Position numbers and translations under genes: made by a program
NCBI GenBank assembly: GCA_018816905.1
Contig: JAHIVB010000013.1
Span: 108,880-172,879 of the forward strand
Direction of reading: 5' to 3'
DNA length: 64,000 bases
DNA from: Bacillota bacterium
GTDB taxonomy: Bacteria > Bacillota_I > Bacilli_A > Izemoplasmatales > Hujiaoplasmataceae
Shown here: piece after piece, positions 7,301 through 64,000 of the stretch
How positions within the stretch are numbered: the first letter of the stretch is position 1
Layout: the number at the start of each line of letters is the position of its first letter
The notes under the pieces: model-generated
The model's database searches: none
What the model was told of the DNA's origin: nothing
The model's input: only the letters and a program-made list of their open reading frames with translations

Positions 7301-9195
7301 GTTGATGGAGCAAGTCCTGATGTAACGGTAACGACTCTGGTTACTGTTACACTGTTTCCGGATGCATCGGTAATGGAATAAGTAATCGTGTATTCACCTA
7401 CGGTATCAACATCGATTAACTCTTCTCCCGTAATTTCGATATCTACGACTCTAAGTGAGGAGTCTCTGTTGTCAGTTACATCGATTCCGAATAAAGGATC
7501 GAAACTGTCGCCAAGACTAATCGTGATATCATCTGCACCGGTAATCATTGGTGCTTCTGTATCAACAGCTGTTGGAATAGCTTCTACTACGATATTGTCT
7601 AAATACATGGTAGTTGGTACACTTGTCGTTCCGACGAGTCCCATGAAGAAAGCAAATTTTCCTGCTGTTAAAGTGGATGCTGAATGATAATAATCAAATG
7701 TAAATGTGGTCCATCCTGTTGTTACATCAAAATCATGATCAAATTGACGTACATAAGATGCATTTTCTAAGACAACTTTTATAGGTCTAGCTAAATCAGC
7801 TTTCGCATCAAATGAAATTCGGTAAGTTCTACCTTGTTCCAAAACGCGTCCCAATAGATAGAATTGAACACCATGAGCTACTGTTCCGATTGCGGTAATG
7901 TTAAATACTGCTTCTCCGCCTACGATTTCAGCCGTGAATGCTCCGGTGTTTCCTCCGTCAGTCTTCCAAATCCAATCTCCGTCACCTGTTCCAGTTACAT
8001 TAGATGTTGTTTGAACAACTGAGAAATCAGCATTCGATACAACAAATGTAGATGGTGGTGGAGTCGTAGAAACGGTAATGACTCTATTGACGTAAGCCGT
8101 ATTTCCAGACTCATCCGTAATTGTGTAAGTCAGTGTATAGTCTCCTGCTGTAGTAATATCTACAGTTCCTGTAATGATAATGTCATTGACTGAAATAGTC
8201 AAATCATAGTCATCCGTAACTGCAACACCTTGTAAAGGATTAAACGGAATGCCTAGTTCAGAGATATAAGCGCCAACTCCAGTCATTACAGGAGCGGTGT
8301 GATCTCCAGGAAGTTCTTCGAGTTCTGTCACAACTACATCGTCAAGATATACTTTCGTTGCGACGGAAGTCGTTCCAATGTTTCCTAAGAAGAATCCAAG
8401 TTTTCCGGTCGTAATCGAAGCTAGTGTAACTTCGAAAGCAAACTCATAAGTAACCCAATCAGTAGTTAAGTCAACTGTTGTACCCCAATACTTCACATAA
8501 TTGGTTCTGTTTTCAAGTTGAACAATCATCGGTCTCGCAAGATCGGCTTTTGCTCTAAAGCTAACTTGATAAATTTTGCCAGATTCAACGATTCTATCAA
8601 CTTGAGAAAATTGATTAGAGTAAGTTAAATTTCCTACTGAAGTAACATTGTATTCAAGAACGCCATCTACGATTGTTGCCGTACTGGCTCCGCCTTCACC
8701 GGCCCAATGTCCCCAAGGTTCTTCTAGTACATCCGAGAAATCTCCGTTAACGATATAGAATGTATTAAGAACGGCTTCTCTGACGCGTAATTCGCGAACC
8801 TCATAATAGGAGTTTCCTGCAGTATCGGTAATCGTATACGTAATGTAATACGTTCCCGGTGTTGTAATGTCGTATTCTCCTGAAACGACAATATTAGCAG
8901 TAATATTACCGTCAACGTTATCTTGAGCAGTAATTCCTGCATTTACGTCGAATGAATCACCGACAAAGATAACAACATCAGTTACACCTAAAAGTAAAGG
9001 TGCAGTTACATCTGGAGCAGTCGTCGTTGTCGTTGTTGTTTGAGTCGAAGTAGTCGTCGTTGTGGTTGTTGACGTGGTTGATGTGGATGTGGTTGCGGTC
9101 GTCGTTGTCGTTGTGGTAGCTGAAGTGTCAGTAACACAGGCAATGACTCCGAAAGCGACAAACGCCATCAAACCTAATAAGAAAAGTTTTTTCAT
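4339..9195 (-). CDS. giant surface lipoprotein with six tandem (Ig-like DUF5011-type + CBM4/9-like carbohydrate-binding) modules
   Basis: True start is MKKLFLLGLMAFVAFGVIAC (ATG ending 9195, RBS AGGAGG). The ORF-track extension to 9303 overlaps the upstream gene. There is a lipobox VIAC and a Thr/Ser-rich linker. Six repeats of about 245 aa follow, each with an Ig-like block (..ITGxVDTxTxGxYxLTYxxTDxSGN..) and a jelly-roll block (NADF..W.WKT..FKAKADxARPI..KFAFFMGLVGTTSV). Confidence 0.8.
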   Translation of the reverse strand: MKKLFLLGLMAFVAFGVIACVTDTSATTTTTTTATTSTSTTSTTTTTTTSTQTTTTTTTAPDVTAPLLLGVTDVVIFVGDSFDVNAGITAQDNVDGNITANIVVSGEYDITTPGTYYITYTITDTAGNSYYEVRELRVREAVLNTFYIVNGDFSDVLEEPWGHWAGEGGASTATIVDGVLEYNVTSVGNLTYSNQFSQVDRIVESGKIYQVSFRAKADLARPMIVQLENRTNYVKYWGTTVDLTTDWVTYEFAFEVTLASITTGKLGFFLGNIGTTSVATKVYLDDVVVTELEELPGDHTAPVMTGVGAYISELGIPFNPLQGVAVTDDYDLTISVNDIIITGTVDITTAGDYTLTYTITDESGNTAYVNRVITVSTTPPPSTFVVSNADFSVVQTTSNVTGTGDGDWIWKTDGGNTGAFTAEIVGGEAVFNITAIGTVAHGVQFYLLGRVLEQGRTYRISFDAKADLARPIKVVLENASYVRQFDHDFDVTTGWTTFTFDYYHSASTLTAGKFAFFMGLVGTTSVPTTMYLDNIVVEAIPTAVDTEAPMITGADDITISLGDSFDPLFGIDVTDNRDSSLRVVDIEITGEELIDVDTVGEYTITYSITDASGNSVTVTRVVTVTSGLAPSTLILANADFNKDQFVPVTSDGWYWKTSTGGAFTATIDNGVAQINVTNPGLVPHGVQFYQTNRVTVKDTIYIISFKAKADTPRPIKLIMENGSTYARLLDYDVFITDEWVTYTIEYNYTLDGITNAKFGFFLGAVLGTSVPTTIYIDDLQIVTAAAVNDTLAPMLIGVDDTVIVQNNTFDPMFGVKVWDFNDKVLSTTDVVVTGTVDTATPGDYVLTYSLTDASGNVLEVTRTITVVAATEFGSSFVLVNADFETEQLASVTENGWYWKTSGTGAFTASVSGGVATVNVTSLGTATYGVQFFQQNRTLESGAIYKISFKAKADIARPIQMAIEGSASSTTRLYDEIFDLTTDWETYTTTVTFPQVFGFTNGKFAFFMGLVGTTSVATTIYLDDVVIEMIGYVNDTEAPTILGATNTTVLTNDVLDLMTGISMFDIYDKELTVADIAITGAQVIDTLGVYTLDTTVAGVYDVTYTLTDQSGNETVIVRTITVQDAAPVNTFVIPNSDFAVDQAVTGIDGEWTWKTSTGGAFTLAIVNGQVEVDVTNVGLVPHGVQFNLLNRSMVSGTIYKITFAAKANDPRPIKMVIENASYVRLLDVDVYLTTEWTTYTAYVEYTGPSITNAKFAFFMGAVLNDSVPTQIFIDDITCEIVSAVVDNQAPVIYGIADAVFTQNETFNPMLGVSVWDALDKTLLSTHISVSGEVDTSTLGTYVLTYSVRDASGNVGTYTRNVEVVASVLDSSFTIVNGDFEVDQSVPYAQPAIDGWGWHGAGTFTVDISDGVAAIDVTALGTVAWGVQFYQQSRTLESGTMYKITFMAKADIARPIQLAVEGGASTTTRLWDQIFNVSTDWETYTTYVCLPKSATFVNGKFAFFMGLVGTTSVATTVYLDDVTIEAIGNVVDDSEPFIVGANDVSIAQSAVLDPLAGILVYDVYDGQLFVSDIVLTGDQITLVEGVYTFDSSATGIFTITYTLTDQSGNVVVIVRTVTVS
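4380..8960 (-). repeat. six tandem ~735-bp coding modules with alternating subtype pattern
   Basis: The protein motif FKAKAD.ARPI recurs at about 245-aa spacing. Modules 3 and 5 are more alike, and modules 4 and 6 are more alike, implying a two-module higher-order duplication. Confidence 0.7.
8990..9125 (-). repeat. low-complexity Thr/Ser codon tract (linker)
   Basis: ACN/TCN-rich DNA encodes TTTTTTATTSTSTTSTTTTTTTSTQTTTTTTTAP. This is a likely O-glycosylated or extended stalk. Confidence 0.65.
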
Positions 9196-9220
9196 AATTC
9201 CTCCTTTTAATCTTCTATAA

Positions 9221-12064
9221 TTATATTTTTGGTTTCCTAAAGAAACGTAAGCCCAAGAATATTGCTCCGGAAAGGAAAGCGACTCCGCCGGTAATTCCAC
9301 CAATAATCCTTCCTACTACCGAGGTGGGTTCATCAGGATCGTCGATTGGGTCGACAATTGGATCGTCGTCTGGATCATCGTCAGGATCATCGTCCGGATC
9401 ATCGATTGGATCGACAATTGGATCATCTGGTGTTGTATCAACGATTGACACATGAATCAGTTCGGAAAACATGGTGTATGATTGTCCGTTTGGTAAAATG
9501 GTATTAAATGATGCTAATAAATACTCATCCCCCACAGACTCATAGGAAGTGATATTGCTCAGTTCATCTAATGTCAAGTTTGTACTTCCGTCACCAATTC
9601 TCATGATTTCAGGAACAATGTCATAAGTTAAACCAAGTTGAGTTTCAATTTGACCCCTGATAGAGAAAGACTGAGGTTGATATATATCAAGTTCAATTTC
9701 TGTTGTATTCGCTGTCAATCTGTTAAATGTATTTTTTAAGAAATCGCTGTAATTCGTCGTTAGTCCACCAACTCCATACATATAATACTCGTAGAAATCA
9801 GCGCTTGAATTCATTGTCCAAGGCCAAACAGAAAGTCCTCTATAGTTCATTTGAAGAATAAATTCGTCTGTGAGTTGAGAGAATTCTGGATTGATGGTTG
9901 TTTGCATTGGTACAACGGCATTCAGTGTGGCACGAATGCTCGCTTCCAAATTGTCCGCACTCAATAATGCGGTTGATAAATATCCAGCTGATATTTCAGG
10001 TAATACCAAATTCATCTCAGCAATTTGATTAGCGATAAAAGTAATTACAACGATCTGGCTTGAGACTTCATATTCATCAATCAGTTCTTTCAAACGCGTT
10101 ACAATCGCTGTTTGAGAACTTTTGATTTCAATGAACAAAATCGTGTTTGTACCTTGAATGTTTTCAAAATACTCATTCAAAGTCGGAATTCTCATCGTTT
10201 CTTCAATCTCATAATTGTCCAGTAATTCAAGTGCCCTCAACTGAGCCAAAGTAGATTCTTCTACTATCAAAGAACCATTGGCAGTTCTTGTTGTTGAAGA
10301 GTCATGAATAACAACAATTTCATTATCGGTTGTTAAGTGAATGTCAAGTTCTACGACATCTGCATTGGCTTCCATCGCAAACTGCATGCTTGGTAAAGAG
10401 TTTTCCGGTGCAAGGTAAGGCAACCCACGGTGTCCTATTGACAAAGGTCTTCTAAGTAGAGTGTTTTCCGGGAACATCATCAACAAATCATAATAACTTG
10501 TCAAATCATCCAATACCATCCCGTTTACCCCTGAAACCAATGCTTGAACGACACTTGAATATTCTTCGTTTGCAACATCAGACCAAACACTGACAAGTCT
10601 TTTTTGAAGATAAAATACATTTGTTTTATTTGTATATTCAATTGGTAACATCGCCACAATAGCACCTGAAGCGTTGGTTTCATCACGAATCAAGAGTAAG
10701 TCTTCCTCAGTTAATACTGGTTTTGAAGAATCATAAGTAATTTCATAGACGCCACGAATCATATTGTATTCACTTCTTGCATCACGAATCGCATTGTCGT
10801 TAGGTGAAATCATAAAAGAGTCACGAACACCATATCCTTTTAGTAAAGTCGCAACCGCGACTGCCGTATCCGTAAACTTTGTATAGAAAGCAGGAATGAC
10901 TCTCGCACCAACATATTCAAAGATATCTTGGATTTCCATGAAAGGTAATCCGCTAGAATCGGTTACTTGAAGGTTTGCATTGATTCTAAAGACGGCGGTT
11001 TGAGGTCTTATTTCTTCTGCCAATGCTTCAAGGTCCTCTAAAGAGTTCATCATTTTGACTGCGCCTGCAGGCATGATGACGTTAGACTCAGGTACATAAA
11101 GACTTGGAATTGCAGAATAATCTGTCGTCGTGTTATCAATATAAGATTCAGGCATCGTCACAACGATGTTGTTGAAGATGGCTTTTGAACCACTGGATTG
11201 AAATCCGATTAATCCATTGGAATAATCATTCGCATTCTCGTAAGTAATTAATAATTCGTCGTTGATATATTCATTGACGACGGAACCGAAAAGATCGATT
11301 TTTAATCTATAAATCGATGCAGGATTGATGGATTCGCTGTAAGCTGTTGTGACTGGAACATTCCAGTTGCCGTTGATTGCTTTTGCAAATTCAACGCCGT
11401 TTGTCGCAGTCGCGCCTTGTCTAATAGCCATTTGGAAATAATTGTTTGGGCTGAATCGATACATGACGGAAGCCCATCTTGTCGATTCAACGGTAGAAAG
11501 AATCGTAAAGTCTGTTTCTATGATATAGTTTTTGAAACCTTGAAGATAGTTTGGCAAAGTGACTTGAGTAGGCGATCCCGTCGCAGGTGAATCCAAATAG
11601 AGGTATCCACTCTCAATCCCCGCTGAACCTTTGACAAGATTATAATCAGCAGGAATGTCTCCGTCAGCTACAGATGTAAAACTAGCCTCATATATAATGT
11701 AATCCGTTTCCAAAGAATCTTTTGCAAAAACGTAAATGACTACAGTTTCAGTACCTAATGTCAATCTAAAAGTATGAATTCCTTTTTGACTAACCAAAAG
11801 AATTCCTTCTGTAATCGTTAAAAAAGCAGAAGGGTCAGAAAACGTTCCTTCTGTCAATGCGACTTTTCCCATCAAGGAATTGTACTGTATTTCACTTAGA
11901 TCAACAGACTCCCCTTGATTAACGAAAAGATAAGGCCTTAGCTCGTATAGTAGAGTCACTTCCTCTTCTCCTTCCGCATATACTATGACGTTTGTATTTT
12001 GAATGAATGAAAATGCTGAAAAAGCTAATAGTGCAAATATGAAAATCAATTGAATCCTTTTCAT
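9221..12064 (-). CDS. secreted, membrane-anchored glycerophosphodiester phosphodiesterase with N-terminal LamG-like jelly-roll domain and C-terminal acidic DP-repeat
   Basis: Start is MKRIQLIFIFALLAFSAFS (RBS GGAGG; ATG ending 12064). GDPD catalytic motif is HRG..ENS..E.D...T.D at IGHRGLPYLAPENSLPSMQFAMEANADVVELDIHLTTDNEIVVIHD. The C-terminus has the DDPIVDPIDDPDDDPDDDPDDD repeat followed by a hydrophobic anchor. Confidence 0.8.
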   Translation of the reverse strand: MKRIQLIFIFALLAFSAFSFIQNTNVIVYAEGEEEVTLLYELRPYLFVNQGESVDLSEIQYNSLMGKVALTEGTFSDPSAFLTITEGILLVSQKGIHTFRLTLGTETVVIYVFAKDSLETDYIIYEASFTSVADGDIPADYNLVKGSAGIESGYLYLDSPATGSPTQVTLPNYLQGFKNYIIETDFTILSTVESTRWASVMYRFSPNNYFQMAIRQGATATNGVEFAKAINGNWNVPVTTAYSESINPASIYRLKIDLFGSVVNEYINDELLITYENANDYSNGLIGFQSSGSKAIFNNIVVTMPESYIDNTTTDYSAIPSLYVPESNVIMPAGAVKMMNSLEDLEALAEEIRPQTAVFRINANLQVTDSSGLPFMEIQDIFEYVGARVIPAFYTKFTDTAVAVATLLKGYGVRDSFMISPNDNAIRDARSEYNMIRGVYEITYDSSKPVLTEEDLLLIRDETNASGAIVAMLPIEYTNKTNVFYLQKRLVSVWSDVANEEYSSVVQALVSGVNGMVLDDLTSYYDLLMMFPENTLLRRPLSIGHRGLPYLAPENSLPSMQFAMEANADVVELDIHLTTDNEIVVIHDSSTTRTANGSLIVEESTLAQLRALELLDNYEIEETMRIPTLNEYFENIQGTNTILFIEIKSSQTAIVTRLKELIDEYEVSSQIVVITFIANQIAEMNLVLPEISAGYLSTALLSADNLEASIRATLNAVVPMQTTINPEFSQLTDEFILQMNYRGLSVWPWTMNSSADFYEYYMYGVGGLTTNYSDFLKNTFNRLTANTTEIELDIYQPQSFSIRGQIETQLGLTYDIVPEIMRIGDGSTNLTLDELSNITSYESVGDEYLLASFNTILPNGQSYTMFSELIHVSIVDTTPDDPIVDPIDDPDDDPDDDPDDDPIVDPIDDPDEPTSVVGRIIGGITGGVAFLSGAIFLGLRFFRKPKI
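9336..9432 (-). repeat. near-perfect tandem DNA repeats encoding acidic (D-P/I-V-D-P) repeat
   Basis: GGATCGTCGATTGGGTCGACAATTGGATC-like units are repeated directly. This region is a candidate for slipped-strand length variation. Confidence 0.7.
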
Positions 12065-54647: not shown

Positions 54648-56024
54648 CTAAGCAGGATTTACAGAAATTTTGCTTGCATATGAACTCCAAATATACGCGA
54701 TATCGTATGCATTCTTTGTTTCTAAATCAGGCACATAAATGGCTAAATATGATTTGGTATTGGTAAACATAAATAATCCACCAGTGATAACGCCTTGCGA
54801 ACTGGTCTTATCAATGATGATTGTACTCAAACTAGTACAATCATAAAACGCTCCATATCCTATATACTCGATATTAGAAGGAATCGTAATCGTTTGAAGA
54901 CTACTACATTGATTAAATACATAGGCATCTATTCCAGTCAATCCTGAACCGATTGTCACCTCAAGAAGACCAACACAATTACGAAACGCATAGAGCTCAA
55001 TCGTAGTGACTTGGTCAGGAATTATGATACTTGTTAATTCCCAACAATTATAAAATGCATGGGTTTTAATGATTGTAACCTGATTTCCAATTGTTACATT
55101 TGTCAGATACATACTTTTCGTAAACGCGTATGGTTCAATAGATAAAACGTTGTTGTTGATGATATAGCTTGTATCTGATTTTGCAGAGGGATAAGTTATC
55201 AATAACTCTTCTGAAATACTAAAAAGAACACCCTCGATGGACTTATAAAAAAGATTATTAGAATCCACATTGATGGCTTCTAGTTTTGAACATCCCATGA
55301 ATAGTGCAGTCCCAACTTCTGTAATATACTGTGAAATCGTATACTCTGTTAATTCTTCACATCCCATAAATGCATAAATTCCGATTGAATTGATATTGGG
55401 TGAATATACAATTTCTGTTACACTGTAGCAACCACCGAATCCATAATCAGCAATTTTCGTTACTGGCTTACCTTCATGATATTTTGGAATTTGAATGGAT
55501 AACAAATCTTCCGCATCCTGAAGGCTAACTTCATATTCCAAATCATCATTGATTAGAGTAAATACAAGATCTTCGGTTGCCCAATCTGCATATAATACCA
55601 TGTCATTTGATGGCATCAGATCAAACTCATAAAGGTCGACTGATTCAATATCCAGATACCAACCAGAAAACACATATCCTTCTCTTGTTGGACTAGCTGG
55701 TTCTACAATTACCGTAGATTCTGCTTGCACAATTGGTTCAACTTGAGTTCCACCATTTGACTCAAAAGATATCGTATGGATTGCACTTGTAGTTGTAGTA
55801 GTCGTAGCTGGTAATGTAGTAATCGGTTGAGTCGTTGTTGTATCCGTCGTGTTTGTTATTGAAGTTGTGGATATCGATGTTGTATCAGTAACAGTGGTAG
55901 GTTGTGTCGTTTCGGTCGTTTCTAAAGTCGTAACTGATTCTGATGTTGTTTTTGAAAATAAATCGCATCCGTTGAGAAACAATACAAAACATGAAATAAT
56001 TATCAAAAATAATGCTTTTTTCAT
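54648..56024 (-). CDS. surface lipoprotein with Flg_new (Listeria-Bacteroides) repeat and BspA-type leucine-rich repeats
   Basis: Start is MKKALFLII (RBS GGAGGA 7 nt upstream), with a Cys lipobox and a Thr-rich linker. The Flg_new motif is EGYVFSGWYLD...W. BspA-like LRR units YAFRNC..L..VTIG and IGYGAFYDCTSLSTI recur. Confidence 0.75.
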   Translation of the reverse strand: MKKALFLIIISCFVLFLNGCDLFSKTTSESVTTLETTETTQPTTVTDTTSISTTSITNTTDTTTTQPITTLPATTTTTTSAIHTISFESNGGTQVEPIVQAESTVIVEPASPTREGYVFSGWYLDIESVDLYEFDLMPSNDMVLYADWATEDLVFTLINDDLEYEVSLQDAEDLLSIQIPKYHEGKPVTKIADYGFGGCYSVTEIVYSPNINSIGIYAFMGCEELTEYTISQYITEVGTALFMGCSKLEAINVDSNNLFYKSIEGVLFSISEELLITYPSAKSDTSYIINNNVLSIEPYAFTKSMYLTNVTIGNQVTIIKTHAFYNCWELTSIIIPDQVTTIELYAFRNCVGLLEVTIGSGLTGIDAYVFNQCSSLQTITIPSNIEYIGYGAFYDCTSLSTIIIDKTSSQGVITGGLFMFTNTKSYLAIYVPDLETKNAYDIAYIWSSYASKISVNPA

Positions 56025-56579
56025 AACAAAATCCTCCAATTAAGTAGTATTAAATAATATCAAATCGATTTTTATAAAACGAAATCACTCAATCATTAAA
56101 AATATTGAAAAAACCGAACTTACTGCTCTGTTACGAAATAGCAGGAAACAACCCCCCTTTATGCAAAACAAAGAGGATACTTACATTATCATAATTAAAT
56201 ATATTATATCAAATGTTTATCTTGTTGTATAGGAGCTATTAAGTATTTATTTGATACTGTTTATTATTCTATATTCGACAAAACTTAAGCAACCTAAATT
56301 CCAAGACATTGTATTTGTATTAAAGTAATTAACGTATACTTCAATAGCTGCCCAAGGGTCTTTGAAGTCATGAATTCTTAAATTCTCATTTTTATAATCT
56401 GCTTTTATCCCCCGTAAGTCTCTGATGCATGACTACTTGATTTTCCTTTATTACCTGCTCTTCACAAATCTTCATTTTCTGATTTAGGGTTAATCTCACA
56501 ATTAAAAATAGCTCCCTTTATCAGAGAGGTATTTTGTGTATACCATTTCTCCAACTTATGAGAGCAATTTCATTGTGAT

Positions 56580-56740
56580 ATGTCTTGTCATTACCAAGTT
56601 TATCTTGTTTTGCATCATAAAAATAGCTTGTTTTACTCTGGCGTTGTACCAAGTTTTCTTTCTGTGCAATAGAAGCTTTCAACTTGAAGCACAATCGCAC
56701 AAAATGCAAAAATTCTTCATGACAAGTTATTATCAATATA
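56580..56740. repeat. dispersed repeat, D-type copy 1
   Basis: TGTCTTGTCATTACCAAGTTTATC...AAAAATAG...ACCAAGTTT.CTTTCTGTGCA.TAGAAGCTT...AAGCACAATCGCA. About 75% identical to the copies at 57706 and 63668. Confidence 0.7.
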
Positions 56741-56827
56741 TTTATTTAAATCTGTTTTTATAACCCTTTTCTATTCATACTAACAACAAGTACTCACTAT
56801 TAAAATTCCATACCAATCCAATAGATA

Positions 56828-57613
56828 TTAATCCATTTTTTGACATAAAAACATCAATATATCATTTTTCGTGAAATCCTTATTACCTACCGTATCTGAA
56901 TAATAATCCACTATTCTAAATCCCTGTTTATTCATATAAGTTTGCATTTCTTTATAATTATAATGTTGATCCCAGTTATAAAGTTCTATCGTTCTTATAC
57001 CTACTGCTTTATCATATGAAAGAGAAATTTTTCTATCAGTAAATTTAATCAATCGTGATTCAACAACTGCATTTCCGGGCAAAAAAAAGCCGTCTTTATC
57101 TTCATATCTAACTGATGACTCTTCTAATGAATCAAAACGTTTATCGGAAAAGACATCAAAGATGAAAAAACCATTTGGATTTAACACTTTTTTAAGATTA
57201 TTTAGAAACTGTTTTCTATCGTTAGGTGATAATGCTCCAAAATCACAATAAATCATCATGGCATTATCTATTTTCTGCGGAAGAGTTTCAGATACATAGT
57301 TCATATTTAAATAAATTACATTAGAATTTTGTTTTCTAGCATATTCTAACGAATTCTCAGATATATCCACACCGATAACTTGATATCCCATTTGCTGTAA
57401 ATAATTTCCATACAAGCCAGGTCCGCACCCAAAATCGCAGATTGTAGACCCTCTCGTAAATGTATTTAGGAGAAATTTGCAACTCTCTTTTATTGTATCT
57501 AATTTCCTTGATGCAATATCACTTTCGAAATTAAGATGATATTTTAACATCTGCTTGGAAATATATGGATCAGTCCACATATCAATTGTTGTAATTTTTC
57601 CATAGGGTTTCAT
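56828..57613 (-). CDS. class I SAM-dependent methyltransferase (small-molecule/protein type, not DNA MTase)
   Basis: Motif I DFGCGPGLYG. No DPPY/NPPY or C5-methyltransferase motifs. RBS AAGGAG 8 nt upstream. Confidence 0.75.
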   Translation of the reverse strand: MKPYGKITTIDMWTDPYISKQMLKYHLNFESDIASRKLDTIKESCKFLLNTFTRGSTICDFGCGPGLYGNYLQQMGYQVIGVDISENSLEYARKQNSNVIYLNMNYVSETLPQKIDNAMMIYCDFGALSPNDRKQFLNNLKKVLNPNGFFIFDVFSDKRFDSLEESSVRYEDKDGFFLPGNAVVESRLIKFTDRKISLSYDKAVGIRTIELYNWDQHYNYKEMQTYMNKQGFRIVDYYSDTVGNKDFTKNDILMFLCQKMD

Positions 57614-57705
57614 TAAGATATCTCCTTATGCATCATGCGGTGAATTTTTATTGTTTTTGTGCCCAATTCTCATCAATAGTAATTTGAAACTCAGATGCAA
57701 GAAGT

Positions 57706-57840
57706 GTCCTGCTATTACAAAGTTTATCATATTTTTCACTAAATAAATAGTGTATTTTCTCTGGAGTTATTTCAAGTTTACTTTCTGTGTACTAGAAGAT
57801 TACATCTATTAGAATAATCGTTTCAAAATGTGATTTACCT
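57706..57840. repeat. dispersed repeat, D-type copy 2
   Basis: TGTCCTGCTATTACAAAGTTTATC...AAATAAATAG...TTTCAAGTTTACTTTCTGTGTACTAGAAG. Confidence 0.65.
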
Positions 57841-57892
57841 CTTAACAGAAATTATTGTGTTTCATCCCCTATTTTGATGCAATTACGTACCC

Positions 57893-57995
57893 CTGATATG
57901 ATTTCACAAACCACTGCTAAAAGTTGCGAACCTCTGCTATTTCTTTGCATATGATATCACAACCCACTGTTCAAAAACCATACCAAGCCAATATA
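57893..57995. repeat. A-type repeat: degenerate half-copy plus solo IS3 left-end fragment
   Basis: GCATATGATATCACAACCCACTGTTCAAAAACCATACCAAGCCAAT matches the IS3 left terminus (63271-63315) at about 90%. It is preceded by a degenerate partial duplicate, TGATATGATTTCACAAACCACTGCTAAAAG. Confidence 0.7.
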
Positions 57996-58042
57996 AGGTA
58001 TGCATTTATTAAATGTGCATACTTTTTTTGTAATCTTGTTTT

Positions 58043-58348
58043 TTAACTTAATCGTCTAATTCTCTTAATATTAAAGATGATTCCAAATATTGTGGCAGCA
58101 ATTGTTAAGATAAGTAAGAGTATATAGGCAGCAATGTTGTTTGGATTATCAGTGTTCATTATATTGATTATTTGTTTAACGCACAAAATTAAACCAATTG
58201 GAATCCAAACAAATAGTATAACGTATGATATCCTTATTTCTAAAAGACCTCTATCTGTTACCTTTCTTGATTTTTCTTTGAATAGTGATTCCAAATCCAA
58301 CTTTACTTCAGTTTCAAATTCACTTATTTCTTTTTTATCTTCTATCAT
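58043..58348 (-). CDS. small two-TM membrane protein of unknown function
   Basis: 101 aa; RBS GGAGG 7 nt upstream; charged N-terminus followed by two hydrophobic helices. Confidence 0.5.
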   Translation of the reverse strand: MIEDKKEISEFETEVKLDLESLFKEKSRKVTDRGLLEIRISYVILFVWIPIGLILCVKQIINIMNTDNPNNIAAYILLLILTIAATIFGIIFNIKRIRRLS

Positions 58349-58714
58349 CCTTTTACCTCCATAATTAGATATTATTTATACTACTTTTTTTCAAGAATAT
58401 AATTATACTAAATTTATAGTTTGTTCAAACTCTTATTGATGTTATCCATTGCAGATAATAGTCCAATTAAAAATAAAACAGCTCCAAATACTACTAAGAC
58501 TCTTTGATTAAGACAGATTAACATTATTATACCTTCACTCTAACTTTTTGGAGTCACTTCATTCTTCTATGTGTAAACCACCTTGTTTTGATACAAATAG
58601 GCACAATACGATTACCTTTCGGCCCACCATAATAAGGATTATACTCAATCTCCTTTCAATGAACCTATTCCAATCGTATAGGATTCTTGATAATATAATA
58701 CCCAAAAATGATAG

Positions 58715-59221
58715 CTAAACGACTAATTTGATGAATATTGGAAGTTTTTCATCTGGATCGATTAAGTGACTATCAATGAATCCTACAGATTCCCAAAAAG
58801 GAAGTCCAGTGACTTCGTCTGGAGTCAAATAAATATGGTTTGCACCATCAGCTTTTAAGACATTTTCGATATGTTGGAAAAACATCCTCCCATATCCTAG
58901 TCTTCGTCTATCTTTCGCAATATATAATCCCATGATATAACCATATCCTTTGTCGATAAGTCCCTTGATTCCTCCTAAATCGATTGCAAAGTTACATATT
59001 CCAATACATTCGTCATTAACATACATAAGTTCAAAATGCATCGTATCGCGTAATCTTTGTATTCCAATTCTTTTCATCAAGTTATCAGTAACTTGGGTGA
59101 CATCGTAGTGTTCGTCTCTGTGCTCCTTCATTTCGGCTGTAAATGGCAACCAAAGAGATTTAGCATCTTGGATATGCTTTTCGTTTTCCTTTTGAATTTG
59201 AATATAGTATATTGTATTCAT
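58715..59221 (-). CDS. GNAT-family N-acetyltransferase
   Basis: 168 aa; acetyl-CoA motif region IAKDRRRLGYGRMFFQ. Confidence 0.7.
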   Translation of the reverse strand: MNTIYYIQIQKENEKHIQDAKSLWLPFTAEMKEHRDEHYDVTQVTDNLMKRIGIQRLRDTMHFELMYVNDECIGICNFAIDLGGIKGLIDKGYGYIMGLYIAKDRRRLGYGRMFFQHIENVLKADGANHIYLTPDEVTGLPFWESVGFIDSHLIDPDEKLPIFIKLVV

Positions 59222-59462
59222 TTTCCCTTCTTTCGTTTCCTCAATAAAATGTGTTATGGCAATATTATAGCATTTTTATGAAAAAAACTATGACTCAATG
59301 GTATTTATTTTTAGTAATCGTGTTTTTATTTAGACTTAATGGTTACAATTGACAAATATGACCAACTTACTCTTTTAGTTTACGTAACTATGATGGTGAA
59401 AAGACTTTATTAAGGCGCAAAAAAAAGGACTGATAAATAGTATCAATCCTGGTCTTGTTATA

Positions 59463-59606
59463 TGTCTTGTCATTCGCAAGTTTATCATGAAAATAGGGCA
59501 ATCCACTCAAGTTGCTCTATATGACATTATCAAGTTGCTTTTTTTGAAGAAACTCGTATGCATATGATATCACAACCCACTGTTCAAAAACCATACCAAT
59601 CCAATT
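59463..59606. repeat. composite repeat: short D-type copy 3 + solo IS3 left-end fragment (A-type)
   Basis: TGTCTTGTCATTCGCAAGTTTATC...is followed, after about 70 nt, by GCATATGATATCACAACCCACTGTTCAAAAACCATACCAATCCAAT. The distal part overlaps the 3' end of the HTH ORF. Confidence 0.65.
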
Positions 59607-59914
59607 CTTGTACTTCGTTCAGCTGCGATGATCTCCGGATTGAATTTCTTTGGATTGAGCGAAATCTTCCTGGAAGAGGTACGCCACTCCCTGGTAAAAA
59701 AATCCTGGGTCCGTTCAGATGTCCGTTCATTCAAATCAAGATCATCAAAGAACTTCAGATATTTCTCGACAGTAGATTCCGGGATATCAGTTTTAGCAGA
59801 GATGTCTTTATTTGATACTGTTACATGATAGTTATTTACACATTCGTTGTAGATCCAAGATATTAGCTTCAGTTGATTTCGATTGAGTTGAGACAAAATA
59901 TCATTCGTTAACAC
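59570..59914 (-). CDS. putative helix-turn-helix DNA-binding protein
   Basis: Probable GTG start at 59914 (RBS GGAGGTGA 4 nt upstream). The track's TTG at 59935 is unlikely. The last roughly 12 codons read into the IS-end repeat, so the native C-terminus may be altered. Confidence 0.4.
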   Translation of the reverse strand: MLTNDILSQLNRNQLKLISWIYNECVNNYHVTVSNKDISAKTDIPESTVEKYLKFFDDLDLNERTSERTQDFFTREWRTSSRKISLNPKKFNPEIIAAERSTRIGLVWFLNSGL

Positions 59915-59994
59915 GTTTTCACCTCCAAAACGCAAAAAAAGGCGTGATTTCTCACACCTTTGAATGTAGTTATACTTATATTTTGCCGTCTTTT

Positions 59995-60023
59995 ATTATA
60001 TCAAAGATATAATAAATTGTCAA
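59995..60023 (-). promoter_or_regulatory. perfect consensus sigma-A promoter (TTGACA-17-TATAAT)
   Basis: Minus-strand TTGACA (60023-60018), a 17-nt spacer, then TATAAT (60000-59995). Lies about 80 nt upstream of the HTH gene and just downstream of the candidate immunity gene. Confidence 0.6.
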
Positions 60024-60073
60024 TATTTCTATTAAATATTCATTGGTAGGCCAAATACTCGTATTTGGTACAT

Positions 60074-61075
60074 TTACTTTAATTTATTTACTTTTTTCAT
60101 TACGTCGATTAAATCCATTGAAGTAACTCGTCTTTGAAAATCTGATCCATAAATTTTGTTCATTCGAAGATTGTAGTTTTTATATAGCATGATTAATTGA
60201 TTATATAAACGCATCCACAGATAAAAAGTTGTCTCTTTTCCATCATTATGAATATATTCATTTGCAGGTAAAACTGGTTGAGGGAAGTTGCTCAAATAAT
60301 GCAGCTTTGTTGGGTAATTTTTTTTGATTTTCCATATTGCAATCCTATAGATTGGAAGATATCCAAATTCATCTGTAGGATAGTACTTCGTTTCTTTCTC
60401 TTTCAATTGTTCAACAATACTTTTTCTTCCATCAAACGGAAATAATCTTTCGTCATAAAAATTACTGAATACTTGAATATACTCAAGTTTATTATATTCC
60501 TCAATCGTCGTAGGTATGCTGGAAGAATCACATATTTTTGAATATACAACCGGTAATATATCATTAAGAAATGGAAACTCATCCACTTTTTGAAAAAGAA
60601 TCCACTTTCCATAATATTGCTCATCATCTACAAGTTCTTGATCCAATTCAATACAATATACATCCCACTTGTTCCAAGAGTTATTCGTTAACACGAATGG
60701 TTTAAGTTTTGAAGGATTGGAATTCGATTCAGATAAAATATACTTAATCTCATTCTTTATTTCATCAACACAGTCAGATAAGTCTAGAGATTCAGTAACT
60801 ATACACTTATGCATATCAAAGTGAAGAACTTGATCTTTTAGAACAGAAAGAAAGGACTCAAATTGAATGTTATATTTCCATAGAGTATAAGAGATACCTA
60901 TCCAAGATAGATACCATAGACACTCATTTGATTTTGCATTCATATCAATCTTTGTAGAAACCAAATTGAATAATTCCTTTTGATTCATACCCCTGTTGTA
61001 ATCGTGCAAACACACTTCACAAATATCAGTTATTACAGGAATTTTGGTAATCATTTGAAGATTTTTCAGTTTCAT
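60074..61075 (-). CDS. hypothetical protein, candidate immunity protein for the adjacent GIY-YIG RHS toxin module
   Basis: 333 aa with no recognisable family. Starts 34 nt after the toxin-module stop (RBS GGAG). Very AT-rich. Position immediately downstream of the toxin C-terminal domain fits the usual toxin/immunity arrangement. Confidence 0.5.
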   Translation of the reverse strand: MKLKNLQMITKIPVITDICEVCLHDYNRGMNQKELFNLVSTKIDMNAKSNECLWYLSWIGISYTLWKYNIQFESFLSVLKDQVLHFDMHKCIVTESLDLSDCVDEIKNEIKYILSESNSNPSKLKPFVLTNNSWNKWDVYCIELDQELVDDEQYYGKWILFQKVDEFPFLNDILPVVYSKICDSSSIPTTIEEYNKLEYIQVFSNFYDERLFPFDGRKSIVEQLKEKETKYYPTDEFGYLPIYRIAIWKIKKNYPTKLHYLSNFPQPVLPANEYIHNDGKETTFYLWMRLYNQLIMLYKNYNLRMNKIYGSDFQRRVTSMDLIDVMKKVNKLK

Positions 61076-61108
61076 ATTTTACATCTCCGATTTCTATCTT
61101 CTTGTTAA

Positions 61109-61954
61109 CTAATATGGAATTCCGGCCATATCTAGTAAGAGTAAACAATCGCTCTCCATCGCATTCATTAATAGTTCAGAATTATATCTTATATTTGATA
61201 TGCTTAAAATTCTATTCTCTAAAGGTGGCAGACCCAATATCAATATATATTCAGTCTCATATACTCTCGCTTCAGCTAGAGATATGTTTCCAATAATAAT
61301 ACTGTCGGCAGTTATCCTCTCACCATACCTTTTTCGATGGGCAGCCAATCTCCTAGGGTAGTTATTTGTGATTCCAACGTAGAAGACCCCGTCTTTATCA
61401 AATAATGCATAAACACAGTATCCACTCGAATGCGCTTGGGTGTATGCGGTTGCTGTAGCGATTGCTATTGCTATTACAGAAAATTTAAATTCTGTGCTTA
61501 CTTTATCGGCTAAATTAATCAGTTTGTCTACTAGATTATTAATTCCTCCTAAAAGTCCATTATATAATGAATCCGCACCGGGAATACCAATTTCCGTGGC
61601 AACGTATAGTATGAGTAATACAAATAAAGCAGCCAGAATTCCAATTGAAACAAGGGTAAATGTGGTTGGCTCGTAGCCGTTGTAATCAATGTAACTGGAT
61701 GGATTATTTAAGCAATACGCGTACATATTTGTTGAAGTAATATCCCCCGCTTTTCCGAGTAACCCATCAGAATTAATAAATCTACCAATTTCAGGATAAT
61801 AATATCTACTATTTAAGTAATAGAGTCCTGTTTCTTGATCAAATCTATATCCTCGATATCTATATGAGTTTTTCACTGCGAGACCGATTCCTGAATTGTC
61901 GGTTACCTCAGTAATATTCCCCCAGGCGTCATACTCGTATTCAACAACGATCAC
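61109..61954 (-). CDS. 5'-truncated/orphan RHS-repeat C-terminal module carrying a GIY-YIG nuclease toxin domain
   Basis: Begins directly inside RHS core-end sequence (YDAWGNIT...YRYRGYRFDQETGLYYLNSRYYYPEIGRFINSDGL). A hydrophobic segment follows, then GIY-YIG motifs GYCVYALFDKDGVFYVGITNNYPRRLAAHRKRYG. A GTG start and an in-frame stop 2 codons upstream show there is no upstream RHS body. Confidence 0.75.
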   Translation of the reverse strand: MIVVEYEYDAWGNITEVTDNSGIGLAVKNSYRYRGYRFDQETGLYYLNSRYYYPEIGRFINSDGLLGKAGDITSTNMYAYCLNNPSSYIDYNGYEPTTFTLVSIGILAALFVLLILYVATEIGIPGADSLYNGLLGGINNLVDKLINLADKVSTEFKFSVIAIAIATATAYTQAHSSGYCVYALFDKDGVFYVGITNNYPRRLAAHRKRYGERITADSIIIGNISLAEARVYETEYILILGLPPLENRILSISNIRYNSELLMNAMESDCLLLLDMAGIPY

Positions 61955-62018
61955 ACTGGATTAAGTGCTTTTTAAACAGTATTTAATAATAAACTCATAT
62001 ACATACAAATCATATCAT

Positions 62019-63020
62019 TTAAGAGGCTGATATGCAAGCCTGATTTTGAATTCTGTAACTAATTGGTGTCATGTAATTCAGAGTAGAATGCATTCTCTTT
62101 CTGTTGTAGAATATTTCAATATATTGAAATAAATCGTTTTCGACTTCAGAGGAATTTTCATAAGATCTTCGGTAGATGCATTCTTTTTGAAGACAAGCAA
62201 AAAAGCTCTCCATACAAGAGTTGTCGTAAGGGCATCCTCCGCGACTCATACTTTGAACCTTCCCATAGTCATCAAGGATATTCTTGAATCCTGCACTTGC
62301 GTACTGGCTACCTCTATCACTGTGAAAAACGGTTCCTTGAACTTCAGGATACCTGGCTATTGCATTAGAGATAGCTTGTTTCACTAATTCCGTGTCGATA
62401 TTCTTACTAGTTGAATAACCAATGACCTCACGGTTATAAAGATCCATAACAGCAGCTAAGTAATACCAACCTAGACCGGTTTTAATATAAGTAATATCAC
62501 TTACCCATATTTTGTTTGGTTCTTCTACACTAAACTTTCTATCAACGATATTGTCTGCATATCTTGATAGAATCTTTTTATATGAATAGGGTCTGAATTT
62601 CTTTTGGGTGATAGAATATAATCCGTTTTCCCGCATGATTCTGCGGACTTTCCATTCACTTAATCGTGTTCCTTCTGTTTCTAATTGTCTTTGTATTTTC
62701 CGGACTCCGTAGATTTCTTTACTGTCTGAAAACACTTTATTCACGGATTGAACCAGCGATCGTTCTGATTCCTTCCTTATATTTCTTCTCTTTTCTTGTT
62801 TTTTCCATTGGTAAAATGCTCGCTCTGGGATTTCAAGGACTCTGCACATCTTCCTCACGCTGTGTTGCGAGCATAGCCTATACATGGCTTCACATTTCAT
62901 GCGCGCTGTTCCATGAAGATGTGCAGGGATTATTTTAGGATCTCTACCTTTTCTCTTTCTTCTTCCAATAATCTGTTTTTTTGTTTTAGTTCTTTTTCTA
63001 ATTCCTTCACTTTGATCCAA
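62019..63020 (-). CDS. IS3-family transposase OrfB (DDE integrase core), expressed as OrfAB fusion by -1 frameshift
   Basis: DDE/rve-type motifs (..SDITY.., ..HSDRGSQY..). It overlaps orfA by 91 nt in the -1 frame. Confidence 0.85.
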   Translation of the reverse strand: MDQSEGIRKRTKTKKQIIGRRKRKGRDPKIIPAHLHGTARMKCEAMYRLCSQHSVRKMCRVLEIPERAFYQWKKQEKRRNIRKESERSLVQSVNKVFSDSKEIYGVRKIQRQLETEGTRLSEWKVRRIMRENGLYSITQKKFRPYSYKKILSRYADNIVDRKFSVEEPNKIWVSDITYIKTGLGWYYLAAVMDLYNREVIGYSTSKNIDTELVKQAISNAIARYPEVQGTVFHSDRGSQYASAGFKNILDDYGKVQSMSRGGCPYDNSCMESFFACLQKECIYRRSYENSSEVENDLFQYIEIFYNRKRMHSTLNYMTPISYRIQNQACISAS

Positions 63021-63241
63021 TTTTCATCTTTACTCACTCTTGGACCTTTTACAATTCCCTTTTCGTCTGAGTAAGTTGGCATTTTATTCTTTCTTCTAAA
63101 ATCTCTTACCCACCGACATACTGTGTTAATGTCAATTCCTAATTCTTCTGCGACTGAAGTAGCTGATCTTCCTGAATCGATGATGAACTTTGAGGTTCTT
63201 TCTCTCATTTCATCTGAGTATTTACTATTATTGCTTGGCAT
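62930..63241 (-). CDS. IS3-family transposase OrfA (HTH)
   Basis: MPSNNSKYSDEMRERTSKFII...ATSVAEELGIDINTVCRWV HTH, with a leucine-zipper-like C-terminus. Start probably ATG at 63241 or 63259, not 63271. Confidence 0.8.
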   Translation of the reverse strand: MPSNNSKYSDEMRERTSKFIIDSGRSATSVAEELGIDINTVCRWVRDFRRKNKMPTYSDEKGIVKGPRVSKDENWIKVKELEKELKQKNRLLEEEREKVEILK

Positions 63242-63548
63242 GGGGTTTATACCTTTCATTTTTCTATGCATATGATATCACAACCCACTGTTCTAAAACC
63301 ATACCAGTCCAAATTGAATTTAACAACATGTCTTCCCTTGCGCATTTGCATTATTTACGATTACATTCTTTGCTTCAACTTGGATTTAAGAAGGATTCAG
63401 AAATTGAAGCTGCCAAATGTATTGCTAGTGCAATAGCAAAAGGGAACACAGAAGAAAAAAAGTTTTTTTAAAAGAGCTTGAATTCGATCATAAGATTAAT
63501 CCAATTGATTTATTGAAGCGTCATCAAGACTCGATATAGAAAGTAAAA

Positions 63549-63582
63549 ATGCAGGCAACATTAAGTTGTCTGCATTTTTTTG
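63549..63582 (+). terminator. intrinsic terminator ATGCAGGCAAC-attaa-GTTGTCTGCAT + T7
   Basis: 10-bp stem with one mismatch, followed by TTTTTTT on the plus strand. Confidence 0.6.
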
Positions 63583-63667
63583 GGTTTTCACATAGAAAGA
63601 ATTGCCTTTTTCGGTAACGAATATTTAAACTGACTGTCTTCATCGTCAGTGCAGTTTTCATTTATAG

Positions 63668-63830
63668 TGTCTTGTCATTACTAAGTTTATCGCGTTTTTT
63701 AACAGAAAAATAGCGTGTTTCACTCTCTTACCATACCAAGTTTACTGTTTTTGCACTAGAAGCTTATAGCTTTAAGCACAATCGTCATAAAAAGTGTTTT
63801 ATCTCTTGACATATATTTGATATGATTTCA
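63668..63830. repeat. dispersed repeat, D-type copy 4 plus partial A-type half
   Basis: TGTCTTGTCATTACTAAGTTTATC...AAAAATAG...CCATACCAAGTTTACTGTTTTTGCACTAGAAGCTT...AAGCACAATCGTCA...TGATATGATTTCAATCAATTCAT. Confidence 0.65.
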
Positions 63831-64000
63831 ATCAATTCATTTATTTTTTAATCTTACATATATACCATATGTCATTTCCTTCAAATCCACAATCAGTATA
63901 TAATTTTATTGGATTAGATATATTTTCCAATCTACCTGAAACTGTGATAAAATCAGCTATTTTTGACAGTCTATTTATTAATGCATTTACAATTAACTTC

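Follow-up and report, generated by a model that had tools for sequence, protein, structure and literature searches.

The D-type repeat, about 145 nt long, belongs to a so far undescribed group of non-coding elements, polar and modular in build, that occur in bacteria of the Izemoplasmatales/Acholeplasmatales type. To our knowledge, interspersed repeats have hardly been described in these lineages, which are known almost only from MAGs; a literature search found nothing on the repeat's sequence motifs or on Izemoplasma repeats. The group includes the types D, D3, E, F, and T, each beginning with a tip that is like an IS end (TGTCTTGTCATTA; for T, TGTGTTGGGTGACC) and continuing with two to five family-specific direct repeats, and the 13-nt tip is shared across families. 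We tentatively favor the explanation that these elements are non-autonomous partners of IS3-family elements, serving as landing sites for IS insertions and as junctions of rearrangements. An initial annotation of the window (the whole 64-kb stretch of DNA analyzed here) had regarded the repeats as particular to a single island; in fact they form one family within a lineage-wide polar group with a common tip. Its broader interpretation stands in part: IS3 ends, a MITE-like nature, IS-targeted sites, and recombination junctions are retained, but a structured RNA, a local feature, and independent relics are not. The features of the window are as follows.

56246–56572, minus strand: decayed second IS3-like element with left end TGAAATTGCTCTCATAAGTTGGAGA and a remnant of the OrfB C-terminus (rve_2, E = 0.0019).
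56581–56726, plus strand: D1 unit (nhmmer 110 bits; 85% identity to the type I consensus).
56775–56822, plus strand: A0, a decayed IS3 left end (66% identity), missed by the initial annotation.
57705–57848, plus strand: D2 unit, a decayed type I copy (nhmmer 86 bits; 84% to the consensus).
57856–57992, plus strand: T-A unit with T-type tip TGTGTTTCATCCCCTATTTTGATGC, remnants of TTACGYACCCCTG repeats, and the A1 end at 57945–57992.
59415–59462, minus strand: H module, a hairpin plus T-run that is terminator-like on the gene strand (terminator 59450–59426).
59463–59605, plus strand: D3-type module fused to A2, with CGCAAGTTTATC-type repeats and relatives in loci L018, L023, and L038.
61957–63313, minus strand: intact IS3-family element (orfA 62930–63271, orfB 62019–63020).
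63668–63812, plus strand: D4 unit (nhmmer 122 bits; 98% identity to the type II consensus).

The four D-type copies described initially are real and lie far above chance: the pattern TGTCYTGYYATTNNNAAGTTTATC matches the plus strand of the window at 56581, 57705, 59463, and 63668, as compared to 0.02 matches expected in a shuffled 64-kb window, and a separate repeat search also recovers them. The internal duplicated TACCAAGTTT core is equally genuine. Over about 117 nt, identity is 79% between D1 and D4, 75% between D1 and D2, and 70% between D2 and D4; D3, as a member of a distinct subfamily also present in L018, L023, and L038, shares only 60–61% with the other window copies. Read along the plus strand, D1 consists of the tip TGTCTTGTCATTA, two ACYAAGTTTAY repeats, a conserved hairpin, and the inner end cATGACAAG, and its functional orientation is that of the minus-strand genes. 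D4 is the youngest copy within the window; locus L016 is 97% identical to the window as far as the D4 tip and diverges beyond it. A coding remnant was considered and rejected: one frame is open in D1, but the same frame contains stops in D4 (by eye), and the D1 ORF has no Pfam match. The MITE-like nature proposed for the repeats, which are non-coding, is supported.

The intact IS3 element carries HTH_Tnp_1 in orfA and HTH_21, rve, rve_2, and rve_3 in orfB, and its two reading frames overlap (62930–63020) in different frames, as in the IS3 family. Its ends are imperfect inverted repeats (TGGACTGGTATGG... and TGGATTAAGTGC...) that begin with 5'-TG and finish with CA-3' (TGGACTGGTATGGTTTTAGAACAG vs TGGATTAAGTGCTTTTTAAACAG), also as in IS3. 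The element cuts off the 5' part of an RHS toxin gene. Its flanks, CAC and AAT, lack a 3–4-bp target duplication, but the copy sits at a rearranged junction, which makes this absence weak evidence. The A-type pattern ATGATATCACAACCCACTGTTC occurs three times versus zero expected, and the A copies correspond, as had been proposed, to IS3 left ends, matching the IRL and 5' leader of the intact element: over 48 nt, identity to the IS3 end (63266–63313) is 90% for A1 (57945–57992) and 94% for A2 (59558–59605). A0 lies 6 nt past the stop of the methyltransferase gene and makes up a 240-nt unit together with D1. These ends are not the solo relics they were taken for, as every one of them is attached, in a single orientation, to a module of type D, T, or E, and the distance from D to A is 0–113 nt rather than 30–60 nt. 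The supposed half-duplicate at 57893 turned out to be a separate T-type module (tip at 57856) with 22 relatives at other loci. As read from the sequences, the T tip is an imperfect inverted repeat of the A end. For the D tip, 8 of 11 positions agree (by eye) with TGGATTGGTAT, the tip of the A end, and past its first ~11 nt it has no likeness to the IS3 inverted repeat. Two other candidate assignments were rejected: D is not the right end of the resident IS3, which has its own A-like right end, and F is not the right end of the IS3 in L022, as it lies ~160 nt outside that element.

Beyond the window, the ~145-nt D unit, often 90–97% identical, is present in 21 MAG species (Izemoplasmatales, Acholeplasmataceae, and Mariniplasma). 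The D loci comprise 34 genuine loci in these species and 45 metagenome loci or contigs; nhmmer returned 102 copies at a cut-off of at least 40 bits. Copies in different MAGs are 90–97% identical, as compared to 67–80% for the coding DNA that the MAGs share, and others (e.g., D2 in the window, the L015 copy, and L009) are decayed; near-identical and decayed copies together make the age pattern of a mobile element. About a quarter of the elements are capped opposite the tip by an IS3 left end (the A-type repeat, 50–70 nt). Such D...A and T...A units are 72–705 nt long, with TG...CA borders, variable internal modules, and no ORF. Most D copies have no A end, only a 7-nt inverted repeat (CTTGTCA...TGACAAG). 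The loci retrieved around methyltransferase homologs, including the Xianfuyuplasma region, contain no D copy, and Xianfuyuplasma is not among the genomes named in the genome-scan matches; a stable cassette of methyltransferase gene plus element was rejected, since the homologs in other genomes stand in contexts lacking the element. A phage or plasmid origin was likewise rejected, as neither the phage nor the plasmid collection contained a match to the repeat; among viral contigs, only one carries D.

The elements are strongly polar. Between tandem genes, 40 are co-oriented and 1 is anti-oriented, and within a locus nearly every D, T, or A copy has the same direction, whereas full-length IS3 copies near the elements have no orientation bias (about 7 to 6). 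The repeats had been said to precede the genes of the island; on the coding strand they come after them, because the genes are on the minus strand. As in integrons, the sites are one-directional relative to mostly promoterless same-strand ORFs. Tips are spaced 0.4–1.8 kb apart in arrays of small same-strand genes, in which GNAT (13 of 150 ORFs), Fic, AbiEii-like, and methyltransferase families are frequent. Many array genes have no element between them, and lone copies are found beside housekeeping genes (e.g., those of PepF, a P-type ATPase, and GGDEF proteins).

The tips also coincide with the ends of other sequences. IS3-like ends lie 3–12 nt outside the tips of ~22 copies, which bears out the proposal of IS-targeted sites. 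In the window, the TGAAATTGCTCTCATAAGTTGGAGA IS end begins 8 nt outside the D1 tip, and the same type of end adjoins tips in L024, L037, L018, and L008; in L051 a full IS3-like element adjoins a tip. The H module, 12 nt outside the D3 tip, adjoins 17 tips, and its hairpin in L051 is the right end of the IS3-like element. Recombination junctions had been proposed as well, and synteny blocks do stop 0–5 nt from tips (in the pairs L010/L015, L013/L037, L038/L010, and L016/window). Genes truncated at the 5' end abut tips in L010, L013, L015, and L038, and a gene-plus-E unit common to L015 and L037, at 72% identity, has its end 2 nt away from the tip. Fragments of tRNA 3' ends (~24–25 nt) lie at 0 nt from a D tip (L015 and L030) or a T tip (L040); such fragments are the only traces of tRNA in the window and 14 loci, where no tRNA or tmRNA genes were found. 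Among 24 two-ended units, matching 3-nt flanks occur in two (1.2 expected) and matching 4-nt flanks in none. An empty-site search found the same arrangement in the window's relatives, and an apparent empty site in L015 holds a decayed D.

Among the 25 most frequent protein families of the metagenome loci, the IS3-type transposase is the only recombinase family (rve 6, rve_2 7, and rve_3 7 per 150 ORFs); the tyrosine integrase family (Phage_integrase) is outside the 25 most frequent in both 150-ORF sets. Large serine recombinase genes or fragments are close by in L030, L016, L040, L024, and L083, and the one in L098 is ~1.7 kb from the nearest D; the window array contains no serine recombinase. 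A tblastn search of 743 kb with an approximate IS200 TnpA query found no HUH transposase.

In the explanation that we favor, the elements would be non-autonomous, BOX/MITE-like partners that IS3 transposases move or rearrange in trans. Their tips would draw in more insertions of the IS3 family, and deletions and exchanges would end there; in this way, arrays would end up between the small accessory genes of islands like that at 56.5–64 kb. The wide spread, the age pattern, and the match of the A end to IS3 argue for this reading, as do the IS3-like ends at tips, the IS3 type as the only frequent recombinase, and the synteny breaks; from these we infer mobilization by the IS3 transposase. Several features argue against it. 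IS3 transposition normally leaves a 3–4-bp target duplication, which the elements lack; no autonomous element with a D-type tip was found; that tip is unlike the IS3 inverted repeat past its first ~11 nt; and most D copies have no A end. Moreover, a shared transposition mechanism fails to explain why the elements are strictly polar when the IS3 copies are unbiased.

An unlikely alternative is that a cassette system uses the elements for attachment or recombination, much as integrons use attC sites and SCC elements their repeats. The 13-nt tip would then be the crossover core and the family-specific direct repeats arm-type binding sites, and a site-specific recombinase (e.g., a nearby large serine recombinase) would move gene-plus-element units in one orientation without target duplication. 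Polarity and missing duplications fit this model, as do the 0.4–1.8-kb spacing of tips in small same-strand gene arrays, the synteny breaks exactly at tips, the L015/L037 unit, the abutting tRNA fragments, and the serine recombinases of several loci. However, the IS3 transposase is the sole recurring recombinase, and the window array has none of the serine type; an IntI-type tyrosine recombinase, which in integrons adjoins the array together with attI and Pc, is outside the 25 most frequent families of both ORF sets, and the contig ends at window position 64000, which cuts off the upstream end of the window array. Many array genes lack an element between them, lone copies sit beside housekeeping genes, and methyltransferase homologs occur elsewhere without an element, so the pairing of the two is not stable. 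D also lacks attC-like extended dyad symmetry, and the IS3 left end at the unit's other side is left unexplained. A related proposal, that the tips are crossover sites of strand- or orientation-specific recombination by a large serine recombinase or an IS3-type enzyme in wall-less Bacillota, appears somewhat less probable still; gene-plus-element units would then be gained and lost at the 13-nt core, with arm-type direct repeats beside it and no target duplication.

About as improbable as the latter is that the elements are functional RNA or DNA-binding elements (small RNAs, 3'-UTRs or leaders, or polar arrays of protein-binding sites) whose orientation is kept by selection relative to transcription or replication. 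In favor of this model, elements and genes are co-oriented at a ratio of 40:1. On the gene strand, some units (D3 in the window and copies in L013, L027, L008, and L012) read as an IS3 left end with an extended -10-like TGATATCAT, a body, and a hairpin plus T-run; on the other strand, six copies have an extended -10-like AAACTTRGTATAAT at a distance of 5 nt outside their tips. The C-rich T-type repeats (CACCCCT) may recall anti-Shine-Dalgarno motifs, and the one conserved D hairpin has two compensatory changes. Nevertheless, the structured small-RNA family suggested initially is not supported. Rfam 15 covariance models, run at gathering thresholds on the whole window and at E up to 5 on 56200–64000, gave no match overlapping any repeat. 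Folding is weak (z-scores -1.6 and -2.3), the covariation term is about 0, and pairing in D amounts to a 5–7-bp end pairing plus that single hairpin; T has no hairpin. In addition, repeat number and internal modules vary in units of 72 to 705 nt, same-locus copies decay freely, the distribution among related genomes is patchy, and promoter-like sites in the island are not enriched (36 found vs 44.5 expected).

The possibility that the elements derive from decayed ends of Tn7-, Mu-, or Tn402-type transposons is very slight. In such ends, a TGT terminus precedes several transposase binding sites of ~22 bp, and the elements have a TGT tip followed by direct repeats, spaced at 21–22 nt in T and E and dispersed in D. 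The right and left ends of Tn7 have a similar layout, and Tn7 insertion of the TnsE type likewise has a polarity relative to replication. Yet none of more than 150 copies has a partner end in inverted orientation, no TnsB-, TniA-, or MuA-type transposase or AAA+ partner is among the top 25 families of either ORF set, and the sole rve proteins are of the IS3 type, with HTH_21 and rve_2/rve_3. Chance similarity in AT-rich DNA, or local segmental duplication of one upstream region, either of which was to have overturned the initial reading, can be dismissed given four matches against 0.02 expected and near-identical copies, each in a different sequence context, across 45 metagenome contigs and 21 further MAG species.

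As a group, the elements combine features unusual for IS-derived repeats: near-absolute polarity, a tip common to families with different repeats, and a lack of target duplications. Should the polarity stem from the mechanism, it points to an undescribed mode of DNA mobility or cassette exchange. We know of no integron- or SCC-like cassette arrays in the wall-less Bacillota lineage, and the crossover-site reading, if true, would supply a functional analog of them. In practice, the group breaks assemblies, and many copies are at contig ends. The elements mark sites where accessory genes (GNATs, toxin-immunity pairs, and methyltransferases) are exchanged and attract IS3 elements, and the element HMM is directly useful for annotation and for finding islands.

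Known repeat systems resemble the elements to different degrees. Integron attC sites, such as the ~120-nt Vibrio cholerae repeats, have one polarity and lie 3' of small same-strand accessory genes; likenesses include mutually similar repeats of ~100–150 nt into which other mobile elements insert, and the frequency of GNAT and toxin-antitoxin-type genes in the arrays of this lineage. In contrast to attC, the elements have no R''/R' cores, R''-L''...L'-R' layout, or extended imperfect dyad symmetry, occur as lone copies by housekeeping genes, and include an IS3 end in the unit. SCC islands at staphylococcal rlmH depend on the large serine recombinase CcrAB and have ~15–20-bp repeat cores at a single locus. 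Here, too, accessory modules are split by direct repeats in one orientation, beside a conserved RNA or protein gene end and with large serine recombinases nearby, but the repeats are 70–150 nt long and at many loci, and most arrays lack a recombinase. Polarity and absent target duplications would fit elements of the IS200/IS605-type PATE class; however, there are no subterminal hairpins at both ends (one in D, none in T), the left flanks have no consensus where that class has a conserved 4–5-nt target, and its Y1 HUH transposase (TnpA) was not found with the approximate query.

Enterobacterial REP/BIME mosaics are entered by the IS3-family elements IS1397 and ISKpn1, and REPs are GC-rich palindromes of 20–40 nt that alternate in orientation and are associated with RAYT (HUH) transposases. 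The elements are similarly extragenic, IS3-colonized mosaics of short modules (D, T, E, F, H, R, and A), but these are 70–150 nt long, rich in AT, and polar rather than palindromic, and the approximate query detected no HUH gene in 743 kb. Like IS-derived MITEs, the elements are small (<~700 nt), multicopy, and non-coding, with TG...CA ends, no transposase gene, one end equal to a resident IS end, and imperfect terminal inverted repeats in T-A units; unlike them, they have asymmetric ends, internal direct-repeat arrays, strict orientation, and no target duplication. Pneumococcal BOX (boxA-boxBn-boxC), RUP, and SPRITE are, as here, short, AT-rich, intergenic, and non-coding, with conserved end modules, a variable number of internal modules, and ends that resemble those of resident IS elements. 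They are enriched downstream of genes and transcribed as UTRs (PMC3049150). No polarity comparable to 40:1 is reported for BOX or RUP (PMC3049150), both of which have clear terminal inverted repeats and the target duplications that are absent here. The elements described here have a true IS3 left end on one side and a tip with direct repeats on the other, and their likeness to BOX and RUP is one of architecture.

The accessory island at ~56.5-64 kb of the window carries two kinds of repeat: the D type, a unit of ~145 nt, and the A type, the left end of an IS3-family element. Both had been proposed in the initial annotation, and both are genuine: the D pattern has four matches in the window against 0.02 expected, and the A pattern has three against 0 expected. 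The repeats and the genes among which they lie are as follows.

56581, 57705, 59463 and 63668, plus strand: D copies D1 to D4
57945-57992 and 59558-59605: A copies A1 and A2
56828-57613, minus strand: methyltransferase
58043-58348, minus strand: small membrane protein
58715-59221, minus strand: GNAT
59570-59935, minus strand: 121-aa ORF
60074-61075, minus strand: 333-aa ORF without a Pfam match
61109-61954, minus strand: orphan RHS tip with a GIY-YIG nuclease domain
62019-63020 (orfB) and 62930-63271 (orfA), minus strand: intact IS3-family element

The window covers the final 64 kb of the metagenome contig ENA ERZ27247128 k141_1164480 (172.8 kb), which ends at window position 64000. Nearly all genes from ~50 kb to the window end are on the minus strand; GC skew on the plus strand is negative across the whole window, so that genes sit on the G-rich strand. 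The last 8 kb (56001-64000) has 32% GC versus 36-40% in the remainder. Within the island, the IS3 copy takes the place of the RHS gene's 5' part, and the 333-aa ORF is probably the immunity gene of the neighbouring RHS tip. Past the window end, the array continues on a Logan contig (L045), which adds a further methyltransferase and a GNAT of 207 aa. Between IS3 and D4 is a 350-nt segment (63316-63660) that contains a 47-aa plus-strand ORF with no Pfam match and a strong bidirectional terminator hairpin (63545-63579); its two weak, sub-threshold Rfam matches are probably due to chance. Far from the island, six ~735-nt coding repeats and a run of 12-nt tandem repeats (4376-9430) suggest a minus-strand gene for a very large, repetitive surface protein.

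D1, D2 and D4 are 70-79% identical among themselves, and D3 is 60-61% identical to them. The A copies are IS3 left ends, as had been suggested (identity to the IS3 left end is 90% for A1 and 94% for A2), and a third, decayed copy lies at 56775-56822. A 22-mer (ATGATATCACAACCCACTGTTC) is the same in A1, A2 and IS3, despite 25-40% divergence of the adjoining D modules. The stretch at 57856-57944, previously taken for a half-duplicate of A, is instead a module of the T type described below. Nor is the repeat family confined to the island or the product of a duplication there. When one genome per species was scanned, D turned up at 36 loci. Two of them, in Sulfurovum (L019 and L036), appear to be chance matches; the other 34 are spread over 21 MAGs, which bear the names Izemoplasmatales, Acholeplasmataceae, Mariniplasma, "Tenericutes", "Bacillales UBA" or "Bacillota". 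Scanning metagenomes gave 45 more loci. One viral contig has D, in two copies, and the plasmid and phage collections searched have none.

On the TGTC strand, the D consensus reads TGT-CTTGTCA-TTACTAAGTTTATC, ~40 nt, TTATACCAAGTTTAC, the hairpin GTGCACTAGAAGCTTACAGCTTTTAGCAC, AATCG, ~22 variable nt and TTGACAAG, and the unit has a sharp left edge. Two subtypes occur side by side within and across MAGs. D copies of different MAGs are 90-97% identical, versus 67-80% for the coding DNA common to the same sets of loci. Decayed copies also exist (e.g., window D2, one in L009, and one downstream of the GNAT homologue in L015). D copies are often found at contig ends, as expected of a repeat that exceeds the assembly k-mer length. 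The IS-end-like start of the element, or tip (TGTCTTGTCATTA), also heads other bodies, which share both loci and orientation with D.

E type: three or four copies of ACGGAGTTTTACTC at 22-nt spacing, with the end GGAGTTGCTTTTTTTT
F type: ATGGACTTTATCAC, then TAGACTAACTTTACTAC twice
D3 type: window 59463, L018, L023 and L038 (three copies)
Short forms: tip TGTCTTGTCATTA
T type: related tip TGTGTTGGGTGACCTATTTTGATAC, then one to five copies of TTACGCACCCCT at 21-22-nt spacing

The elements are polar. Nine genome loci have several D copies, and in every one of them the copies are co-oriented; locus by locus, T modules and A ends share the orientation of D. The multi-element metagenome loci show one discordant annotation among all those of D, T, tips and A ends, a T copy in L093, and concordance there spans distances up to 13 kb. 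The ORFs around D are mostly on the strand opposite the TGTC strand (182 versus 29), and among 102 D copies surveyed, those between tandem genes lie 40 times with the gene direction and once against it. No orientation bias of this kind is seen for the full-length IS3 genes of these loci (about 7 to 6), and such polarity is not known from IS3 transposition.

A ends that accompany a D, E or T tip are always on the inner side of the module in a single orientation, which gives the unit TG...CA ends. The analysis counted 24 distinct units with two ends, 72-705 nt long; the longer ones include extra non-coding modules, 165-nt tandem repeats among them, and no ORF. Three long D...A units of 600-705 nt (L070:944-1648, L082:2876-3580 and L040:4901-5500) contain these tandem repeats and AACATA...TATGTT hairpins. 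As we read the aligned sequences, the T tip and the A end form an imperfect inverted repeat (TGnnTTGG...TTTTGAnAC). The D tip and the A-end tip TGGATTGGTAT, compared by eye, agree at 8 of 11 positions, which makes the D tip as close to the A end as a true IS3-like right end is (L051, TGGTTTGATAC). On an unrelated metagenome contig (L054:4671-4760), a GNAT gene is followed by an A-like IS3 end whose clear extended -10 (TGATATAAT) precedes a lysine-rich ORF of 59 aa, which suggests an inward promoter in the A-type end.

Several sequences recur just outside the tip. A hairpin with an A-run (the H module) lies 12 nt outside 17 tips; on the gene strand it reads as a terminator (window 59450-59426), and in L051 it forms the right end of a complete IS3-like element. 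Five tips, including that of window D1, have an IS3-like left end, TGAAATGACTCC.AAAAGTTGGAGA, 3-8 nt outside them. At D1 it begins 8 nt from the tip and belongs to a second, decayed IS3-like element (56246-56572), in which an OrfB C-terminal remnant follows the left end (rve_2, E = 0.0019). An extended -10-like AAACTTRGTATAAT lies 5 nt outside six tips, and tRNA 3'-end fragments of 24-25 nt touch the tip at 0 nt in L015/L030 (D) and L040 (T). An end of another IS type, TGAACTGATACCAAAAA, occurs within or beside D in L007, L011, L014, L026 and L045; in the first four it is fused to D elements or lies inserted in them. In the upstream continuation of the window array (L045:1263-1396), a solo TGAACTGATACCAAAAA end is the source of a methyltransferase gene's stop codon.

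In related genomes, synteny breaks at tips. The ends of the L010-L015 blocks are at L010:65, 1393 and 2642 and L015:5169, and those of the L013-L037 and L038-L010 blocks are 1-2 nt from a tip. Four tips adjoin genes missing their 5' part, and the lost parts are absent from all fetched loci. As far as the D4 tip, L016 and the window are 97% identical; beyond it, tRNA fragments and the gene of a large serine recombinase follow in L016, where the window has the IS3-RHS segment. Large serine recombinase genes or fragments are also present in L030, L040, L024, L083 and L098; four loci have genes or 5'-truncated fragments 0.4-1 kb from D or T elements.

L030:463-2181
L016:904-2037
L040:7000-7731
L024:4323-4502

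In L015/L030, L016 and L040, the 24-25-nt tRNA 3'-end fragments lie between recombinase and element. The window itself has no large serine recombinase. Pfam scans covered 300 ORFs around elements in a genome set and a metagenome set. GNAT (13), Fic, AbiEii-like and methyltransferase are among the commonest families of the genome set, and the IS3-type rve is the sole recombinase among the 25 commonest of the metagenome set (rve 6; rve_2 and rve_3 7 each). Tyrosine integrase is in neither set's 25 commonest families, and a tblastn search with a single IS200 TnpA query sequence gave no match.

The most interesting alternative, a site-specific cassette system, is less probable. An integron-like system is opposed by the lack of attC-type symmetry in D and of a recombinase dedicated to the arrays, by the many array genes with no element in between, by single copies that adjoin housekeeping genes, and by methyltransferase homologues elsewhere that lack an element. 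It is doubtful that the elements are functional RNAs, given the lack of an Rfam match, weak folding and covariation signals, varying architecture, and copies free to decay. A plain MITE is opposed by the absence of target duplications from the two-ended units (3-nt matching flanks in 2 of 24 versus 1.2 expected; 4-nt in 0 of 24), by a polarity foreign to known IS3 transposition, and by a search that found no autonomous element bearing the D tip. The best-supported account, adopted tentatively, is that the elements form a polar, modular, non-autonomous group whose members are built from IS3-family ends; within accessory islands, the role best supported for them is that of IS landing pads and rearrangement junctions. 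Their nearest analogues are the pneumococcal BOX elements (PMC3049150) and IS-colonised BIMEs.
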